Positions 4,079-19,044 of a stretch of 64,000 nucleotides of DNA are shown one piece after another (the first letter of the stretch is position 1; each line of letters opens with the position of its first letter). Position numbers and translations under genes: made by a program. Source of the DNA: Candidatus Hydrogenedentota bacterium (GTDB lineage: Bacteria > Hydrogenedentota > Hydrogenedentia > Hydrogenedentales > SLHB01); contig BTWA01000004.1 of the NCBI GenBank assembly GCA_045863295.1, positions 160,001 to 224,000 on the forward strand. Direction: 5' to 3'. The notes beneath the pieces are model-generated. The model was not told where the DNA came from and made no database searches. It saw only the letters and a list, made by a program, of their open reading frames with translations.

Positions 4079-6070
4079 TCAGATGCGCTTGTACACCGCT
4101 TTCGGGATCAACTGTTTGCGGTCCGTCAACACGGCTCCAAGTACGCGCCCCTTGGCTTCAGCCAGGGTTTCCATGGATCGCATGACCACTTCGCGGCGGG
4201 TGCTGTCTGTCTTGACAACAACGATCATGCCGTCTGCATGACGCACGAGATTCACCGCGTCGTGCGAGCTAAGCACCGGCGGAACGTGGAAAATGATGCG
4301 CTTGAAGCGGCCCCTCAGGTCGGCAATAACTTCGCGCATCCGCTCCGAATTCCAGAGGTACACGGGGCAGTCTTTCTGGGTGCCGCGCGACATGACGTAG
4401 AGGTCGCCGATGGTCGTAACGACGTCTTGCGCCTGGGCCTCGCCGAGGACAACATCCAGGAGCCCTCGGCCGCTCGCGGCTTCAGGTATGGCCGCGCCGT
4501 CAAAGTCGATGAGCAGAACGTGCCCATCGGGATCGCCTGCCGCGGCGTCCGCAAGAGTGCGGGCCACCTGGTGAGAGTTTTCACCGCCGATGGAACTGGC
4601 CACGCCGATGAATTGCAGCGGCTGATCCGAGTACAGCGCCTCGAGAATCGAGTTGAGTCGCTGGGCTTCCCTGTCATCGAGTTTGGTTCCACTGCTGCCA
4701 AAGAAGGATGCCAGCGGCGCGACGTTGAAGAAGTGTTCGACATCTTCCGGCGTCTTGATGCCGTGATCAAGGTATTCCAGAAAAAACGCCAGCGCGATAC
4801 CGCCCACGACACCAGCCATGATGCCGATGATCATGTTGAACGCCTTGCGGGGGCGAATGGGAGACGTGGGCGTGCTGGCATTTTGCACGACGCGTACGTT
4901 CTCGACACTCTGCTCCAAGAGGCCGTTCATGACGCTGGTTTCTTTTACCTTATTGGAGAAGAACTCGTACTCTTCAGCGCGCAGCTCCACCTGCTTCTGC
5001 AGAATATCGTGTTCATCGATGATTTCCGCCAAGGCTTTGCGCCTCTCTTCGACGGTCTTTTTCTGTTCGCCAATTCTCTGGCGCTCTTTCTCCAACGACG
5101 TCAGCAGGTTTGATTCGGCTTTTTCGATCTGATTGACGAGGCCCAAGAGTTCCGGGTGATCCTTACCCTTGGCCGTTGCCGTTTCATTACGTTGATTAAC
5201 GAGTCGCAGCAGTTGCAGGCGTTGTTCCGTGATGACTGTGCTGTCGGTTTCCCTGGAAAGTGTGGCGATGGGATCTTTCTCCAGATTTTCGCCAATTTCC
5301 TTCAATTGGATTTCGGAACGCAACAGACTGGAGTACTGTTCAGTAAGCAGTTCGTTTTCAATCTCGATCTCATACACATTCTTCGTTTCACGGAACGTTT
5401 TTAGGGCCCCTTGGGCGGCCTTCCACTTATTCTCGGAATCGACGAGTTTGTCGTTGAAATACTGAATAGCCTTCGGGCCCACGCTGTAGATTTCTTTGCG
5501 GCGATACTCCCGATACTGCGCCAACGTCTCCGTCAGAACATCCCGGGAAATTTTCGGGGTACCCAGCCTGCACAGCACTTCCAACGTGAATGAGTCCTTG
5601 ATCGGACGCACGACGATGGCAGCACGGAGCACTTGAATCCCGGCTTGAATCTGGGCCTCTTCATCGCTAACGCCAACCGCACTCTTCAGTCCGGACACGA
5701 CCGACTGAGCCGCATTCATGAGCGAACGTACGGGTCCAGTGCGGCCGGCCGTCAGAGATTCGAGTCCCATTTTCTTGACGACAGCTCCGAGCACGTCGTT
5801 GCTGAAAATAATCTGAATTTCGGAATTGATATCGAACTCGTTCATGGTCACCACGGCGGTCCCATTCTCTTGAATGACCGTGGGCTGCACGGAACTGCTT
5901 TCCGCACCTCGCACGAGTTGGATCTTCGCCTGGGACTCGTAGGTCTCGGGCCAAATGATGTTGCCCACGAAGACCCCGAGGATAACGATCACGGCGAAGC
6001 CAATGATCTGGACCTTACGTTTGAACAAAACCGTAAGGATGTCCCTCAGGTAGATTTGCCTTTGCTCCAT
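4079..6070 (-). CDS. Polysaccharide co-polymerase (Wzc/GumC family) with degenerate C-terminal BY-kinase-like domain
   Basis: N-terminal LRDILTVLFKRK + TM, coiled-coil periplasmic region, P..PIRPRK + second TM, EYLDHGIKTPEDVE, then CpsD-like fold (VLLIDFD, DGMIVVV, GRVLGAVL). Confidence 0.88.
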   Translation of the reverse strand: MEQRQIYLRDILTVLFKRKVQIIGFAVIVILGVFVGNIIWPETYESQAKIQLVRGAESSSVQPTVIQENGTAVVTMNEFDINSEIQIIFSNDVLGAVVKKMGLESLTAGRTGPVRSLMNAAQSVVSGLKSAVGVSDEEAQIQAGIQVLRAAIVVRPIKDSFTLEVLCRLGTPKISRDVLTETLAQYREYRRKEIYSVGPKAIQYFNDKLVDSENKWKAAQGALKTFRETKNVYEIEIENELLTEQYSSLLRSEIQLKEIGENLEKDPIATLSRETDSTVITEQRLQLLRLVNQRNETATAKGKDHPELLGLVNQIEKAESNLLTSLEKERQRIGEQKKTVEERRKALAEIIDEHDILQKQVELRAEEYEFFSNKVKETSVMNGLLEQSVENVRVVQNASTPTSPIRPRKAFNMIIGIMAGVVGGIALAFFLEYLDHGIKTPEDVEHFFNVAPLASFFGSSGTKLDDREAQRLNSILEALYSDQPLQFIGVASSIGGENSHQVARTLADAAAGDPDGHVLLIDFDGAAIPEAASGRGLLDVVLGEAQAQDVVTTIGDLYVMSRGTQKDCPVYLWNSERMREVIADLRGRFKRIIFHVPPVLSSHDAVNLVRHADGMIVVVKTDSTRREVVMRSMETLAEAKGRVLGAVLTDRKQLIPKAVYKRI

Positions 6071-6177: not shown

Positions 6178-7557
6178 TCAGGGCGTAAACTGAATCGCCT
6201 GATTGTTCGGGGTCGGAATCAAGTTGATGCCCGAATTGAAACTCTTGGACTTGACGTCCGAGGTTGTCTTTTGGGTGTTCAGGTAATACGTGCCCGTAAC
6301 GCCCAGGTTGTTGTCGAAAGGCACCACTTCGTCAATGTATTGTTCGACGAACAGGTCGACTTTCGAGATAATCTTCTTGGGCACGTAGACGACGTCAAAC
6401 GGCCGTAAGAGGAGATCGTTCTCGGTCTTGCCTTCTTTCAGGACCAGGTCGAGGTTGGTCTTGAATGTATACGGCTTGCCGTTCGGGTTGCGCCGGATAA
6501 CGACAATGCTGTTCAAGCGGGCGTCGTTGTTCACACCGCCGGCCATCAGGATGGCTTGCAACGCCGAGGGGGCGCCGACCAACGGGTACACGCCGGGAAC
6601 GCCGACTTCGCCACCCACGAAAATGCGGGCGCCGGTCGGCGATACCACATCAACGTGCGTATCCACGGCATTGAACGTCACCTGCGAATACAGGTCGTTC
6701 AGGTTCTGACGCATTTCTTCGACGGTGTATCCGGCGGCCTGAATCTCACCCACCCGCGGGACCGACACGCGCCCATCGGGACGGACGGTGTACGTGCCGT
6801 TCATCCCAGTAAGTTCCGTATTGATGAACGGGAACACGACAAGCGTGACTTCCGGTTCGTTCTTGAGGATCTTGGCCACTTCGGCCTTTACCGCCTCGCC
6901 CGCTTCGCCCACGGTCAGCCCCGCGATGCGCACGTCGGACTTGACGCCGGGAACGCGAATAGCGCCGTCGGGACGTACGATCACGTCGCGGCTGATATTT
7001 TCCAGACGGTCCGGGTTGGAGAAGTCGATGTTTACGGTTATCTGTTCCTGCTCATTCAGGATGCCCGTGCTCTTGTACAAGTTGACGAGCTTGGCTTCCA
7101 GGTCGGCAGGCTTGAGACCGGCGGCCATCACATCGCCAATGCGGGGCATGGTGATGAAGCCGTCGGGCCGTACGGTGCGGTTGGAGTTGAACGTCCAATC
7201 CACCAGGAAGCTGATACCGAGCAGGTCGCCCACGTCAATGACGTAGTCATGGCCGTCGGCCATTTTGCTCAGCACACGGACTTCCATGCGATCGCCAACT
7301 TCAATTTTGTAGTCCCACGGAATTTCGCCTTCGCGGTATTCCTTGATGCGGAACTGCAAATTGAGTTGATCGCCAACATTCACCAGATACGGCAAGTCTT
7401 CGCCGCTATAGTGTTGAATCTCTTCGGGTGTGACGGTCTTATCCGTCCCTTGCGGGTCGAGCATGAGGGTGCTGTCCGTTGTGGCGCAACCCGCCAAAAT
7501 CAACGGGACCAGCAGCCAGGCATGCCGCCTGAGTCGACTGAAGCCCTTCCGTTTCAT
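6178..7557 (-). CDS. Polysaccharide export lipoprotein (Wza/OPX family) with three poly_export units and an SLBB domain
   Basis: Lipobox LILAGC; three VGD-L strands and three VRPDG..P..G...AG motifs; IFVGGEVGVPGVYPL..ALQAILMAGG SLBB; LRPFDVVYVP. Confidence 0.9.
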   Translation of the reverse strand: MKRKGFSRLRRHAWLLVPLILAGCATTDSTLMLDPQGTDKTVTPEEIQHYSGEDLPYLVNVGDQLNLQFRIKEYREGEIPWDYKIEVGDRMEVRVLSKMADGHDYVIDVGDLLGISFLVDWTFNSNRTVRPDGFITMPRIGDVMAAGLKPADLEAKLVNLYKSTGILNEQEQITVNIDFSNPDRLENISRDVIVRPDGAIRVPGVKSDVRIAGLTVGEAGEAVKAEVAKILKNEPEVTLVVFPFINTELTGMNGTYTVRPDGRVSVPRVGEIQAAGYTVEEMRQNLNDLYSQVTFNAVDTHVDVVSPTGARIFVGGEVGVPGVYPLVGAPSALQAILMAGGVNNDARLNSIVVIRRNPNGKPYTFKTNLDLVLKEGKTENDLLLRPFDVVYVPKKIISKVDLFVEQYIDEVVPFDNNLGVTGTYYLNTQKTTSDVKSKSFNSGINLIPTPNNQAIQFTP

Positions 7558-7620: not shown

Positions 7621-8502
7621 CTATCTGCTACCGCTCGATCCCTTGTCACCCGTCCTGTAAACAGGGTTTCGAGCGGCCTCTGTCTGCGTGATATAACGAC
7701 TCGTGAACGCGTCGGTTTTCGACGGTTGTTGCACGAATGGAAACTCTCTGAATCGTTGTTCGGGGTCGGGCAGACCGACACCGTAAGGCTTCGCGGCGAG
7801 CCGCGGCAGGCGCTCCATTTCGTCCTGCCGCATCGTCGCGCCGAGTTCGGGCCGTTCGATGTCCATATCCGGTGCGAACAGCTGCGCGGGCGTGATCTTC
7901 CGGCGTTGGCGTACGTTCGGAATGATACGGAACAAGCCTGAACGGCTCAGCAAGACGCTCTTGTATATTTCCGCAGGCAGCAACTGGCTCTGCTTGAAGA
8001 TGTCGAGCACGAGCGTACTGGCCTTCCACAACGCCGTCGCGTCCTTGGGATCGTCGGTCTCCATCGCAATGCGCTGCACGTGGTACATCACCGCGTCGCG
8101 GACGTCGTCCGCGCTGGCTTCCACCTTGGCGGAGTACGGCGGGAACAGGTCGAGCGATTCAACGGTAATCCGATAGAAATAGCCCGGGTTTTGCAGGTAG
8201 TTTGGCGCGGAGGGCTTGAGCACTTCGGCTTTGACCTGCGCCAAATAACGGACTTCGGTCTTGGGTAATTCCTGGTCGACATCGCCGGTATTGGCGGTAA
8301 AATCGGGCCCCCATTTGCGTTCGCGGGAGGTAATTCCAATCCGGCAGACATTGTACTTCTGCTCGATAATAAGATGATTCACGCCGTCGTTCAGGGGCAA
8401 GCCGTGAAACACCGCCTGTTGAGCGATCGCGGGGGCCGGAAACACGCAAAGTGCCGCCACGGCGGCGATCGTCACGGTGAGTTGGTTTAGTGCCTTTGCC
8501 AT
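7621..8502 (-). CDS. Uncharacterised secreted/periplasmic protein (293 aa)
   Basis: Signal peptide MAKALNQLTVTIAAVAALCVFPAPAIA-Q; ATG overlaps the upstream TGA (TGATG). Confidence 0.75.
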   Translation of the reverse strand: MAKALNQLTVTIAAVAALCVFPAPAIAQQAVFHGLPLNDGVNHLIIEQKYNVCRIGITSRERKWGPDFTANTGDVDQELPKTEVRYLAQVKAEVLKPSAPNYLQNPGYFYRITVESLDLFPPYSAKVEASADDVRDAVMYHVQRIAMETDDPKDATALWKASTLVLDIFKQSQLLPAEIYKSVLLSRSGLFRIIPNVRQRRKITPAQLFAPDMDIERPELGATMRQDEMERLPRLAAKPYGVGLPDPEQRFREFPFVQQPSKTDAFTSRYITQTEAARNPVYRTGDKGSSGSR

Positions 8503-14243: not shown

Positions 14244-15401
14244 TTACTGACTCCGGTAAGAGGCAAGGGCCGCCCCGTACGTGTGATCGACCTGTTGAAT
14301 CATACGATCGAGTGAGAAATGCGTTTCAATACGCCGGCGCGCGGCGTCGCCCATTTCCCGGCGGCGGGCCGGATCGGCCGCAAGCCTCTCAATGGCCGCG
14401 GCGATGGCCAAGGCGTCTCCGGGCGGTGTGAGCACACCAGTCACGCCGGGCTCGATGGTCTCGCGGGATCCGCCAATATCAGAGGCGATGATGGGCAATC
14501 CCGCGGCTTCGGCTTCGAGGATGGCCGTCGGCAGCCCCTCCTGCTGCACCGAGGGTTGGGCGAAGAGGTCCATCGCGGCAAGAGCATCCGGCAGGTGCTG
14601 CACCCATCCGGGAAAGACAACTCGATGTTCTAGTCCCAGTTCCCGGGCTTGGGCTTGCAAGTCCGCGCGAACAGGTCCGTCGCCGATGATGAGAAGGTAC
14701 ACGTTGGGATGCGCGCCCTGCACGTGATGCACGGCATCGATCAAGTGCGTGTGGCCTTTTTCAATGGACACGCGGCTGACTGTGCCGACGACGCAGGCGT
14801 CTTCGGGGATGCCAAGCGACGCACGGAATTCGTTTCGCGATCCATTCGATTCGAGCGCCTTGATGCCAAGACCGGTGTGAATAACATGAATGCGCTCCGG
14901 CCGGGTGGGCCCTTTCAGAATCCGGCGCTTCATGTGATCGGATACGGTAATGACCGCATCCAGATTGGGCAATGCAAAATCGCGTTCTATCCATTGATAG
15001 ACGAAGCGGCGAAACGGAAACAAGCCGTCCCACCAGCCATACGCGCTGGCGACGCAGGCGCAAGACCATCGTTGGCGTCCGATGCCAAGAATGGTGTTGG
15101 ATTGAGGATCGTGTGCGTGTACAAGATCGATCTTGTAGCGGTCGATGAGATCGGCGATCGTGTTTCGCGCGCGATTCCAGTTTCCACGGGATTTCCACGG
15201 AATGCGTTCCGGGGCGACGTCCAGGCCGCGGGCGCGGGCTTGTGCTATGAACTGGTGATCGCCGTCGGTGTGGGCGTCGTAGGGCACACAGATGATGTTG
15301 TACCGGTCCTTGGGCATGTGCTCCATCAGCAGGAGCAGAATGGAATGCGATCCGCCGAATGCCCAGCAGCGGATAAGATAAAGAACATTCAACCGATCCA
15401 C
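14244..15401 (-). CDS. Glycosyltransferase family 4
   Basis: VSRVSIEKGH, IGDGP, QEGLPTAILEAEAAGLPIIASDIGG; GTG start overlapping upstream TAG. Confidence 0.9.
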   Translation of the reverse strand: MDRLNVLYLIRCWAFGGSHSILLLLMEHMPKDRYNIICVPYDAHTDGDHQFIAQARARGLDVAPERIPWKSRGNWNRARNTIADLIDRYKIDLVHAHDPQSNTILGIGRQRWSCACVASAYGWWDGLFPFRRFVYQWIERDFALPNLDAVITVSDHMKRRILKGPTRPERIHVIHTGLGIKALESNGSRNEFRASLGIPEDACVVGTVSRVSIEKGHTHLIDAVHHVQGAHPNVYLLIIGDGPVRADLQAQARELGLEHRVVFPGWVQHLPDALAAMDLFAQPSVQQEGLPTAILEAEAAGLPIIASDIGGSRETIEPGVTGVLTPPGDALAIAAAIERLAADPARRREMGDAARRRIETHFSLDRMIQQVDHTYGAALASYRSQ

Positions 15402-17524
15402 TAGGACTTCCAGCCGGCAACGGCAATAGTGGCGGTCTCTCCTGCTTCCACGTGAACCGATAGATCCGTCCCGTCGACAACATAGATGCCTGCAGGGCAT
15501 TGCACGGAAGATTTGCCTTCGGCATCGGTGGTGACCGTAATCGCCGCGGGCGAGACCGATTCGAGGTACGATTCGAGGCGCGTCATAACCGGTTTGGGTT
15601 TGCCGTCCGCCGACATCAATCCGCCACCCACCACGGAAGATGCACGGTCGGTGATGTCCCACCAGGTGATCGATTCAATCGAAGGATGTCCATACGCGAT
15701 CGTGTACACAAGCTCGGCAAACTCCGCCTGCAATTCAGGCGACCACTTCTCCCGCCAGTATCCGTTCTTGGCCTCGGGACCGTATTGATCGGGCAGCGAG
15801 AATTCGGTGATGTGAACCGGCTTTCCGAATTCCGCATAGCGATCGGCCAGATCCACCAGCGAGGCCGGCGTCACCGCCGGGCCCTGCAACCCCTGGAAGC
15901 GATCGCCGAACCGGAACCCGGGATAGAACTGCAACCCAACAACATTGAGTTGGGCGAGTTTCCCGGACGCCTGAAGCTGATCGAGGCATTGCGAATACGT
16001 CAACGGAAATGCATTTGCCGGCGTGCCATCCACATTGAAAAGGCTGTACTTCGCGCCAAAATCGATCTCGTGCGCGGCGTTTACCAACGAGACCAATTCC
16101 GGTTTGTACTCGATGCTCTCCGTCGCCGCCGCAAACAATTCGGTGACCTCTTCGCGGGACAGATTGACGGCGTTGGTGGCCGGCGGTTCGTTCATGGATT
16201 CCCAAATCGCAATGTCGTCAAAGTAACTCTCGAGCATGCGCTGCTGGAAGTCGATGGCCGCAAGGCGCAACTCGGCGGAGGGCATCGTGAACGCGCGTTC
16301 GGGCAGGATTCCATATCCCTGCAACCACACGACTCCATGGGCCTTGAGCGTGAATCCCAAGTCCTTCTGTTGTTGTATGCCGTAGGTCTTGTCGACTCCC
16401 GCCGCGTCATTGGTGTCTATCCAGCCCCAGCCCAGAAGCAGCGTGCTCATGTCGAATCCTGCTTCCCGGGCCGCCTTGTACACCGACGGCGTGTATTGTC
16501 CGCCCTCGAATACGCCGAAATGAAATTCCCTGGATTGCAGTTTCAGCGTGATTTCCTGATTCGCGGCAGGCTTGCCGTCGGCGTCCGTAACGGTGAGTTC
16601 GGCGGTGCCGTTGCGAAGCGAAGGCGCTGACGCCTTGGCCAAAGCCACTTCCAACTCGTCCCGCAGCCTGAGCGCAATCACGAGCAGTTCATCGGCTTTC
16701 GACGCCTGCTCCAAGGGGTCCTCGATTGCGGCGATCGCTCCGGAGGCGGCACTGAGCGCGGCGATTTCCAAACGGCTGGATTCCGGGAAATGACTGGATC
16801 GGCGGACCAGATCGGCAACCGCCGTGCGCGCGAGTTCCAGGTTCAAATCGATCACCATCGTCTCGCCTGGCGTGGCGGGAGCGAATCCCTTGCCCGCATT
16901 GTCTGCGCGCAACCACAGTTTCCCGTAGCCCCGCGTCTCCCAAAAGAGTACCTGCACGGCGCACGGCTCTCCCGGCTTCACGGCGAGTGCGGGCAGACCG
17001 ATTTCACGCGCGGACCCTTTTTGCCTCGCTTCCTCGTCATACACGGGCCAGATCACGGCCGGGGCCATGTCCATCTTCAAGTTGGTGGCGTAAATAAACT
17101 GATCGCCATGAAGACCGCGTGCGCGGAATTCCTGCCATCGCAAGAGATTGCCGTTGGAATCGCGTGCACGGACGGCGATGGTTGCGACTTCCGGCAGCGT
17201 AAGGGTTGGCGTTGGCTCGCCCTGGTACTTGTACACTCGAGGCGAATGGGCGTATCCCGCAATGCCGTCCACCGGATTGCCCGCGGGCGGCTGCACGACG
17301 AGATGGCCGGTCGCGGGCATGGTATCCACGGGAATGGAGAAGGCGCCGTCCGACCCTGTAAGCCCTTGCCCAAGAGAATCAAATGTATCCGAGAAAAGTC
17401 CGACATACACGGACGCAATTGGCGCGCCCTGCTCGGACTTCACGGTACCGGTAAAGGCGGCGCCGGCCTGTAGGTTCGCCGCCGCCAGCAGGATTACCGA
17501 TGTCAGCAGGCCGCGAAGTTTCAT
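15401..17524 (-). CDS. Secreted glycoside hydrolase with GH10-like TIM barrel and beta-sandwich (carboxypeptidase-regulatory-like) domains
   Basis: Signal peptide; HGVVW, WESMNEP (acid/base), VGLQF, KPVHITEFS (nucleophile), ITWWDITD, GL...DGKPKP match the GH10 pattern; ATGA overlap. Confidence 0.75.
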   Translation of the reverse strand: MKLRGLLTSVILLAAANLQAGAAFTGTVKSEQGAPIASVYVGLFSDTFDSLGQGLTGSDGAFSIPVDTMPATGHLVVQPPAGNPVDGIAGYAHSPRVYKYQGEPTPTLTLPEVATIAVRARDSNGNLLRWQEFRARGLHGDQFIYATNLKMDMAPAVIWPVYDEEARQKGSAREIGLPALAVKPGEPCAVQVLFWETRGYGKLWLRADNAGKGFAPATPGETMVIDLNLELARTAVADLVRRSSHFPESSRLEIAALSAASGAIAAIEDPLEQASKADELLVIALRLRDELEVALAKASAPSLRNGTAELTVTDADGKPAANQEITLKLQSREFHFGVFEGGQYTPSVYKAAREAGFDMSTLLLGWGWIDTNDAAGVDKTYGIQQQKDLGFTLKAHGVVWLQGYGILPERAFTMPSAELRLAAIDFQQRMLESYFDDIAIWESMNEPPATNAVNLSREEVTELFAAATESIEYKPELVSLVNAAHEIDFGAKYSLFNVDGTPANAFPLTYSQCLDQLQASGKLAQLNVVGLQFYPGFRFGDRFQGLQGPAVTPASLVDLADRYAEFGKPVHITEFSLPDQYGPEAKNGYWREKWSPELQAEFAELVYTIAYGHPSIESITWWDITDRASSVVGGGLMSADGKPKPVMTRLESYLESVSPAAITVTTDAEGKSSVQCPAGIYVVDGTDLSVHVEAGETATIAVAGWKS

Positions 17525-19044
17525 CGAGTTCGAGCGCCTTTGGCTGTGGAACCGCCGTTGGCCGCTTTGGCTTCCTGATCCGCGGCATAGGCATAGGGCA
17601 GCGTGGAAGCAATGACCACGACCATCCACCAGATCTTCTGGTTGAGTCCGTGCAGGAAAAACGAGCACATGAGAAATGCCACGAGACTAATCACAACGGC
17701 CCCGGACAGCAGCGCCATGGGCTGATCGCCCGCAGCACGATACAGTTTCTCCGCGCGCATGGCGTTTCGAAACGCGACAAAGACAAAGGCCAGCAACAGC
17801 AACAACCCGACAAATCCCGTTTCGCTCGCCAATTGCAGATACATGCTGTGCGGTCCGTAGTGGATGGGATCCCAGCCCCAATAACGAACCATCCAACGGA
17901 GCATTTGGGCGACCCAACTGTTCTCTTCCATGAACTTGAATCCGAATCCACCCAGACCGATGCCCGTAATGGGCCTGTCAAGCGCATATTGATAGGCATA
18001 TTCCTGAAGCTCAATGCGCGCTTCCGTGGACTGGCCCTCGTCGTAGATTTTCGGACTGAGCACACGGTCTTTATACGCCTCAGGCAGCACAAGCCAGACG
18101 ATGACCAGACCCACGGCCAATGCCGAAAGCCGGTACGGACTCAACCGCATCATCTGTTTGCCGAGCATGAGGGTAACGATGACCACGCCGACGATAAAAC
18201 CCATGCGGGTGAACGTCAGCACTAGCGCAATCAATTCGACCCCGATCGCACCGTACACGAGCAGTCTCTGGCGGCGCGTCTTGGCCATTGAATACCAATA
18301 GGTATTCAGCGGGAGAATCATCAGCAGCGCGTAGGCCAGCCACGTCGAGTGACCTAACGTGCCGGATACGCGCACGGCGCCGCCGCCGCTGCCCAACTCC
18401 GGATCGATGAACGCACCGCTCTGTCCACCGCCAATGGCTTCGATGCCCCCCACGCCGGAAAACTGCATGCTGGGAACAAGATATTGCATCACGGCGAAAA
18501 GGGACATGCCAACGCCGCAAGCGAGGATCAGGGAAACGTAGGTCTTCACCTTTTTCGAATCGTCGATGATGTGGATCGCGATAATGAACAGGACCACCAC
18601 GTTCGCGAGCCGGCCCCATTGCGGAGCTAGCACCCCCCACATTTCCTGTACCTGCCAGATGATTCCCAGGGCGGCCCAAGCCATGAAAGCCACCGCGAAC
18701 CAAAAATCCGAGTGAACTTTGATCGGCCGCCGGGTCACCAGCAGATTAAAGAACCAGGCGCCCACGGTTGCCAGTCCGCTCAACTTGGGCGCGGCCTGCG
18801 GGATGCTGACGGAAATGCCGGCCAAGGACAGGTTCAACCCGCCCATCAGCAGCAGGGCTGTCGTGATATAGAGGCCGATTGCGGGGTCACGCAAGTAAAT
18901 CACAAAGAAGAAACAGCCGATCACGAAGGCCAGCCCGAGTTCGGCCCAGCCGACCGTGGCAACGATGACACATGCGGCGAAAGCCACAATCAGAAATGGG
19001 GCGACAAGACTGCGTGGTTGAGCCGATTGGGTCGCGGCGGTCAT
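17521..19044 (-). CDS. O-antigen ligase / Wzy polymerase family membrane protein
   Basis: About 12 TM segments; RVSGTLGH, LTFTRMG, PITGIGLGGF, PHSMYLQLASETGFVGL. Confidence 0.88.
   Translation of the reverse strand: MTAATQSAQPRSLVAPFLIVAFAACVIVATVGWAELGLAFVIGCFFFVIYLRDPAIGLYITTALLLMGGLNLSLAGISVSIPQAAPKLSGLATVGAWFFNLLVTRRPIKVHSDFWFAVAFMAWAALGIIWQVQEMWGVLAPQWGRLANVVVLFIIAIHIIDDSKKVKTYVSLILACGVGMSLFAVMQYLVPSMQFSGVGGIEAIGGGQSGAFIDPELGSGGGAVRVSGTLGHSTWLAYALLMILPLNTYWYSMAKTRRQRLLVYGAIGVELIALVLTFTRMGFIVGVVIVTLMLGKQMMRLSPYRLSALAVGLVIVWLVLPEAYKDRVLSPKIYDEGQSTEARIELQEYAYQYALDRPITGIGLGGFGFKFMEENSWVAQMLRWMVRYWGWDPIHYGPHSMYLQLASETGFVGLLLLLAFVFVAFRNAMRAEKLYRAAGDQPMALLSGAVVISLVAFLMCSFFLHGLNQKIWWMVVVIASTLPYAYAADQEAKAANGGSTAKGARTR

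Follow-up and report, generated by a model that had tools for sequence, protein, structure and literature searches.

Three Poly_export domains predicted to nest through one loop of a PslD-like export lipoprotein in Candidatus Hydrogenedentota

A three-copy export lipoprotein in a polysaccharide locus

The window, that is, the whole stretch of 64,000 nucleotides that was analyzed, contains a minus-strand gene for a Wza/PslD-like lipoprotein of the OPX family (Table 1). A co-polymerase gene lies directly downstream, and the genes upstream on the same strand encode a conserved protein, a nucleotidyl transferase, an epimerase, a methyltransferase, three glycosyltransferases and a Wzy_C protein. 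The locus is a Wzy-type polysaccharide locus. The co-polymerase gene adjoins the OPX gene in all 34 family loci in which the OPX frame was recovered, and the order conserved gene, OPX, co-polymerase is kept in every family locus long enough to show it. Also inside the polysaccharide cluster, positions 15401-17668 of the minus strand encode a secreted-looking protein of 755 amino acids that has weak matches, below cut-off, to glycoside hydrolase family 10 and Ig-like domains. By eye, the co-polymerase has one tyrosine at its C-terminus, and its kinase-like domain seemingly lacks the Walker A lysine. PslE of Pseudomonas aeruginosa, to which it is likened on this lysine and on the C-terminal tyrosine, also has a fused kinase-like domain (PMC13434223).

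Table 1. Position of the OPX gene, its predicted parts and its neighbors in the window
Feature	Position	Strand	Basis
OPX (Wza/PslD-like) lipoprotein gene, 459 aa	6178..7557	-	ATG start behind Shine-Dalgarno-like purine run
Signal peptide and lipobox ending in Cys24, predicted lipid anchor	7486..7557	-	motif in sequence
N1, first strand of outer Poly_export domain, residues 57-71	7345..7389	-	motif, model
N2, first strand of middle Poly_export domain, residues 83-97	7267..7311	-	motif, models, coevolution
Inner contiguous Poly_export domain, residues 105-180, predicted co-polymerase-docking tip	7018..7245	-	Pfam, WzaB superposition
N3, first strand of inner domain, residues 105-117	7207..7245	-	motif
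Middle Poly_export remainder, residues 181-243	6829..7017	-	motif, fragment model; pairing with N2 by elimination
Outer Poly_export remainder, residues 246-306	6640..6822	-	motif, whole-protein model
Single SLBB (beta-grasp) domain, residues 310-395	6373..6630	-	Pfam, model superposition
C-terminal helix 396-411 and segment 414-428, predicted pore element	6274..6372	-	PslD alignment
Co-polymerase (Wzc/PslE-like, fused kinase-like domain), directly downstream of OPX	4079..6070	-	Wzz and GNVR domains
Co-polymerase periplasmic helical arm, residues 203-391, 189 aa	4898..5464	-	aligned anchors
Conserved gene directly upstream of OPX	7621..8502	-	33/35 family loci

The Poly_export profile (PF02563) matches the OPX protein in three stretches, with 120.7 bits against a cut-off of 28. 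The initial annotation had proposed such a scan in the expectation of one full and two split hits, and the best stretch is a contiguous inner copy at residues 102-177, which covers profile positions 4-76 of 77. An SLBB domain follows (PF22461 at 311-392 and PF10531 at 312-365, both above cut-off). PF18412 (Wza_C) is absent from the Pfam matches of the protein, and a C-terminal helix at 396-411 is predicted from the model. None of four NCBIfam models reached its curated cut-off (bits/cut-off: TIGR03027 136/180, EpsE 75/263, EpsY 76/320, PRK15078 58/333). The protein is called a lipoprotein by motif, and G23 and C24 of the lipobox are kept in at least 90% of 119 sequences.

As the initial annotation reported, three first strands (N1 to N3) come in a row and only then do three remainders follow; all six motifs that it quoted were found in place within one minus-strand reading frame. 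As motifs, the first strands cover residues 57-69 (positions 7389-7351), 83-95 (7311-7273) and 105-117 (7245-7207). The remainders, or C-halves, start at residues 128 (position 7176), 193 (6981) and 257 (6789) of the minus strand, and the last strands of the three copies occupy residues 173-179, 237-243 and 300-306. This N-N-N-C-C-C order leads us to reject a simple tandem repeat for this protein. Among the 120 matches listed of 177, 115 have NNNCCC followed by SLBB, four have NNNCCC, and the sole deviating homologue has NCCC followed by SLBB, with a single detectable first strand. The strand profile behind these assignments was used with a cut-off of 11, and its best score on 120 shuffled proteins was 9.3, which dismisses a chance origin of the order. 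The spacing from N1 to N2 is 26 residues and that from N3 to the C-half is 23 in 119 of 119 aligned sequences, and the spacing from N2 to N3 is 21-23 residues in the same set.

Full-length matches, at about 50-68% identity, occur in 40 of 135 genomes of Hydrogenedentota (the source genome counted), with fragments in three more. These homologues and the genome survey rule out an assembly artefact. The named close homologues are nearly all from Candidatus Hydrogenedentota, and none of 11 matches in plasmids was a full-length relative. Because the copies have diverged at the DNA level, where the only repeat is a 16-nt, three-copy one at the PDG motif, the duplications that produced three copies are taken to be old.

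Predicted pairing of first strands with remainders

Two structure predictions, both of monomers, bear on which first strand completes which remainder. An AlphaFold model of the whole protein, built from a family alignment, has a pLDDT of 78.5 and a pTM of 0.56; ten-residue means of pLDDT are 69-93 over residues 41-400, and values are below 50 from residue 412. The Poly_export domain (D1) plus D2 of PDB entry 7xfd superpose on residues 54-395 of this model (159 of 171 residues, Z 12.5, rmsd 3.6), and those of 9n9a superpose on residues 57-397 (160 of 160 residues, Z 13.1, rmsd 6.6), where the ranges give the first and last residue only. All nine OPX entries begin at model residue 57 or earlier, not at 105. 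A start near residue 105 would be expected if N3 completed the domain of the last half; the aligned count fits N1 plus the last half plus the SLBB domain, with about 180 residues skipped, and N1 is therefore predicted to pair with the last half. In a second model, of residues 78-246 (pLDDT 89.3, pTM 0.78), all nine OPX entries match residues from about 100 to 183 as one domain (Z 10.7-13.9, rmsd 1.1-2.0 Å). This inner domain superposes on D1 of WzaB with a Z of 13.9 and an rmsd of 1.1 Å over 75 residues and on Wza 84-171 with an rmsd of 1.5 Å over 77 residues, and N3 is predicted to pair with the first half. Since N2 and the middle half are what remains, and both are confidently modelled, their pairing is predicted by elimination, with weak support from coevolution.

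In the coevolution analysis, a template fixed from a different family gave the nested assignment a score of 1.50 and the other five assignments 0.08-0.85, on noisy data (effective depth 48-60) whose block scores of 0.37-0.59 are close to the null's 95th percentile (0.40). Taken alone, the strand-ladder part of the template did not discriminate in either family, and an unbiased ranking in the triple-copy family left the nine blocks unseparated, with registers that disagreed. Of the nine strand-to-half pairs within the top 40 couplings of the two-copy family, five link the first strand with the last half, ranks 2 and 3 included. The four-copy protein P0142 has as its outliers the first strand, at 15-25% identity, and the last half, at 21-28%, versus 35-60% otherwise. 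The repeat pattern of the five-copy protein P0153 fits more than one pairing, the in-register one included, and was dropped as proof of nesting. Foldseek returned known OPX entries only and left the pairing unresolved. A VIA search with the fragment found three of 48,161 chains at a Z of at least 5, all of them OPX, so that other relatives are neither shown nor excluded by it, and a PDB sequence search with the inner domain alone gave no match.

On these models, a nested topology of the three Poly_export domains is very probable. The proposal of the initial annotation that the domain was inserted recursively into one loop of itself thus draws support from two structure predictions and from structural superposition. 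The same order of motifs could arise if first strands were swapped between domains or between protomers of the oligomer, giving an interdigitated assembly and no clean nest. Such exchange of secondary-structure elements is known from the recursively inserted HABAS domains of Si3 (PMC11515920), the present models cover monomers only, and the P0153 repeats are compatible with more than one pairing. However, both models show the nested pairing within one molecule at high pLDDT, and the spacing from N3 to the first half is canonical in every aligned sequence. We regard swapping as quite improbable.

Insertion loop, docking end and partner arm

The insertion separates the end of β1 from the short helix behind it, in the β1-β2 loop. 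The equivalent site in Wza is D99-E102, at the start of that loop (numbering checked). In Wza, the β1-β2 loop forms a tyrosine gate (PMC12819527), and D99/E102 together with Y155 in the α1-β5 loop touch the arm tip of Wzc (PMC12881504); PslD binds PslE through its α1-β5 loop (PMC13434223). The long tyrosine gating loop of Class-1 Wza has no counterpart in the Hydrogenedentota protein, whose inner domain is short-looped and whose outer two domains carry inserted domains at this place. By analogy, the β1-β2 and α1-β5 loops would both face the inner membrane, so that each inserted domain would grow from the tip of the previous one. Only the innermost copy has both loops free, and it likely docks alone. 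In the outer and middle copies, the inserted domain occupies the loop that contacts Wzc in Wza (D99/E102; PMC12881504), so docking by them is unlikely, and the extra docking rings considered in the initial annotation are disfavored. The entropy of the α1-β5 loop is 1.39, 1.51 and 1.84 bits in the inner, middle and outer copies, respectively, and the inner loops are thus the most conserved.

The extra copies might also be binding platforms, and not a spacer, for the co-polymerase at several heights, for the product of the upstream gene or for the cell wall. The α1-β5 loops of the middle and outer domains do keep conserved surface positions, and 33 of 35 family loci contain the upstream gene, while the remaining two begin inside OPX. 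Yet in the outer two copies an inserted domain fills the β1-β2 docking loop, conservation drops from the inner to the outer copy, and the upstream gene has no match in 42 non-family loci, only one of which holds a multi-copy OPX. Platforms are therefore improbable. The upstream gene has no Pfam, NCBIfam or Atlas assignment; its product, which by eye seems to have a signal peptide, is a candidate partner of the triple-nested OPX.

The best PDB sequence match of the OPX protein is PslD (E 5e-17, aligned over PslD 80-254). By this match the protein is nearer to PslD than to the Wza named in the initial annotation. Residues 414-428, which are unstructured in the monomer model, align with PslD 240-254, the membrane-crossing strand, and the C-terminus is predicted from this alignment to resemble the PslD pore strand. 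In PslD, D1 and one SLBB domain reach 74 Å into the periplasm, and each subunit contributes one outer-membrane strand (PMC13434223). Hydrogenedentes relatives were filed as Class 1 by HHpred in the supplement of PMC9603273.

Three known systems offer comparisons. PslD-PslE of P. aeruginosa (PDB 9V6L/9V75; PMC13434223) has in common with the present pair a lipoprotein OPX, D1, one SLBB domain and a C-terminal helix plus strand, both of the latter being predicted here. In contrast, PslD has one D1 where the Hydrogenedentota protein has three, and the PslE arm has about 235 residues and two barrel strands, whereas the arm here has 189 residues and lacks the equivalent of the second strand. Wza-Wzc of E. 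coli (PDB 2J58, 9R60-9R69; PMC12881504) shares the D1 fold, and Wza D1 docks on the co-polymerase arm tip, as is predicted here; Wza draws length from a second SLBB domain, unlike the present protein, and crosses the membrane by a helix. The class-3 protein WzaB of Myxococcus xanthus (PDB 9N9A; PMC12819527) shares the D1 plus SLBB core, and its short-loop D1 is nearly identical to the inner domain, but WzaB has a single D1, no membrane-crossing C-terminus and a separate beta-barrel partner.

Arm length was measured between two aligned anchors. The source genome also encodes a single-D1 OPX with a PslE-like partner (locus L117, G000:C20:304-2900), which is a natural control pair; this partner aligns with PslE over its full length and has an arm of 234 residues, so the arm beside the triple nest is 45 residues shorter. 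A third OPX of this genome, on contig C14, has several SLBB domains. All 19 single-D1 systems measured from hand-picked Hydrogenedentota loci have arms of 230-234 residues. The range is 214-225 residues for 16 two-copy loci and 189-208 for 29 three-copy loci, the latter all of one clade. A four-copy system has 204 residues, two-copy systems with a second SLBB domain have 213, and all four two-copy loci with insertion at α1-β5 have 215. Single-D1 systems of other phyla have 209-248 residues (median 222, n=19) and overlap the two-copy systems. Left out of these counts were seven of the 35 three-copy loci, whose partners are split, truncated or near-duplicate; one of 20 single-D1 loci, which has no partner; three weak non-adjacent matches; and four loci without a full partner. 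The loss beside the triple nest is not of helix alone, as it includes the equivalent of PslE barrel strand 344-355.

With a helix rise of 1.5 Å per residue, the approximately 18-20 arm residues per extra D1 amount to about 14 Å. If D1 and D2 together measure about 62 Å (PMC12819527), this change per domain equals some half of a ring height, and any compensation would be partial at most. The shorter arms beside triple nests suggest that length is shared between OPX and partner, among kin that are not independent of one another. The telescoping extension proposed in the initial annotation stands as the likeliest function, with indirect support from the shorter partner arms, even though the arm trend is not clean.

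The arm data also bear on whether the extra copies, although nested, splay or hang as flexible arms outside the channel wall and tether the co-polymerase arm. That arm shortening is only about half the expected ring height would agree with such an arrangement, as would the pTM of the whole model and the linker between N2 and N3, where variability is highest (entropy 2.6 bits). The relative position of the two inner domains is nevertheless defined in the fragment model at its higher pTM, and there is almost no variation in the spacing between domains or in the junction residues; we consider splaying rather unlikely.

Other nests and the proposed role

The initial annotation called for a survey of homologues with one, two and three nested copies, and two to five copies do occur in other bacteria. 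The best 150 representatives at 50% identity, found with a query profile that favors β1-β2 nests, include 69 with at least two D1 halves. Sorted by eye, 65 of these 69 are nested, counts that are not frequencies. Insertion is at β1-β2 in 46 of the 69 (two, three, four or five copies) and at α1-β5 in 18, and one mixes both loops; two are true tandem arrays and two have repeated D1-SLBB units. In these putative α1-β5 nests, the last strand is missing from each domain, and two to four such strands stand consecutively before the SLBB domain; one nest of this kind is cut before its last strands. Examples are P0132, P0136, P0126, P0128, P0170 and P0212 and loci L133, L134, L139 and L141. P0153 (603 aa) is a five-copy nest with internal copies that are 90% identical, and its expansion is recent, judging by its sequence. 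P0142 (513 aa) and L143:3604-5184 are four-copy nests, and the L143 protein reads as a whole two-copy unit inside itself. P0140, P0394 and P0395 are three-copy nests with a region of PF08239, which we take to be SH3-type, in the N-terminal part.

The two-copy profile (E ≤1e-50) matched 50 of 401 sampled genomes from the phylum of a delta-proteobacterial locus, and two D1 halves were present by motif spacing in all 30 two-copy loci fetched. Cultured carriers of two copies are Desulfobacula toluolica and D. phenolica. A tree of 99 C-halves (58 columns, 31 open forks) was used only for well-supported clusters within proteins. In P0153, P0142 and P0245, the halves of one protein group with each other on strongly supported branches. 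In the triple-copy Hydrogenedentota family they instead group by their position in the protein, so nesting arose more than once and is old in the Hydrogenedentota family. The recent four- and five-copy expansions, seen in single sequences, might be taken as tolerated accretion of duplications in the loop, with no selected role for the additional domains. We hold this to be very improbable, because three copies with fixed spacing are kept in the 40 Hydrogenedentota genomes despite the divergence of the family, and the partner arm differs in step inside one genome.

Building on observations of the motif order and how well it is kept, of the neighboring genes and of the shorter arm of the partner, and on the strand pairings as predicted, we favor as reasonably likely a PslD-like OPX lipoprotein in which three D1 domains, nested via their β1-β2 loops, form a periplasmic spacer whose innermost copy alone docks. 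The nest would stack and likely lengthen the export tube. Both chain ends would be tied to the outer membrane, the N-terminus by its lipid and the C-terminus by its pore strand, and the ends of D1 itself appear to lie together, so a new D1 could be added at the tip facing the inner membrane with no lengthening of linkers. An octamer would have four periplasmic rings (SLBB and three D1), compared with two in PslD, and the co-polymerase arm would then need less reach. The nests may have originated by duplications inside the gene, repeated in several lineages. More tentatively, and with somewhat less than even confidence, we suggest a second, unrecognized way of setting the length of a trans-periplasmic tube, in which the docking domain is inserted recursively into itself, an invention made repeatedly at either inner-membrane-facing loop, with up to five copies and with the arm shortened in exchange. 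Ring number and arm length would then form a ruler of the periplasm.

Recursive self-insertion is known from HABAS/hybrid-motif domains, as in Si3 of the cyanobacterial RNA polymerase β' subunit (PMC11515920, PMC13114784). Like the OPX nest, Si3 is an elongated module with a domain inserted in its own copies, but its fold and function are unrelated, and it is branching and strand-swapped. The OPX nest is linear, lies in one loop of a secretion-channel domain and uses two alternative loops across lineages. It would thus add a clean linear case to the few known recursive self-insertions, and it could serve as a template for extending ring-shaped channels with both chain ends fixed.

Length matching between OPX and co-polymerase across the periplasm has become newly testable through the 2026 structures of Wza-Wzc and PslD-PslE. 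The natural series of one to five nested domains, with partners of different arm length and with pairs within one genome, offers a set for testing both the sharing of length and the effect of length on polymer size.

In the OPX classes defined by Saïdi et al. in 2022, Poly_export occurs once while the number of SLBB domains varies (PMC9603273). The single contiguous Poly_export of the canonical classes is not what is found here, where there are three copies, two of them split. In the supplement of that paper, eight of 27 Hydrogenedentes rows read Poly_export×3 and are filed as Class 1, and 162 strings from representative genomes have a double Poly_export, many cultured genomes having two. These are linear strings of hits, folded into the one-Poly_export class with no comment on nesting in the supplement, and the words "nested" and "tandem" are absent from the preprint text of Saïdi et al. 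We found no description of Poly_export nesting in the openly accessible literature searched, and the nested topology is probably undescribed so far. The impression of the initial annotation that the architecture was new is therefore retained for the nesting and given up for the triple Poly_export string, which was already tabulated (PMC9603273) and belongs to a widespread architecture. The few percent of OPX proteins annotated with repeated Poly_export hits have probably been mis-parsed as tandem arrays. File 3 of the same supplement also gives rows with a double Poly_export for Azotobacter vinelandii and for several cyanobacteria and planctomycetes. A search directed at the double-domain proteins named for Azotobacter did not recover them. 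If nested, the proteins in these rows would be tractable models.
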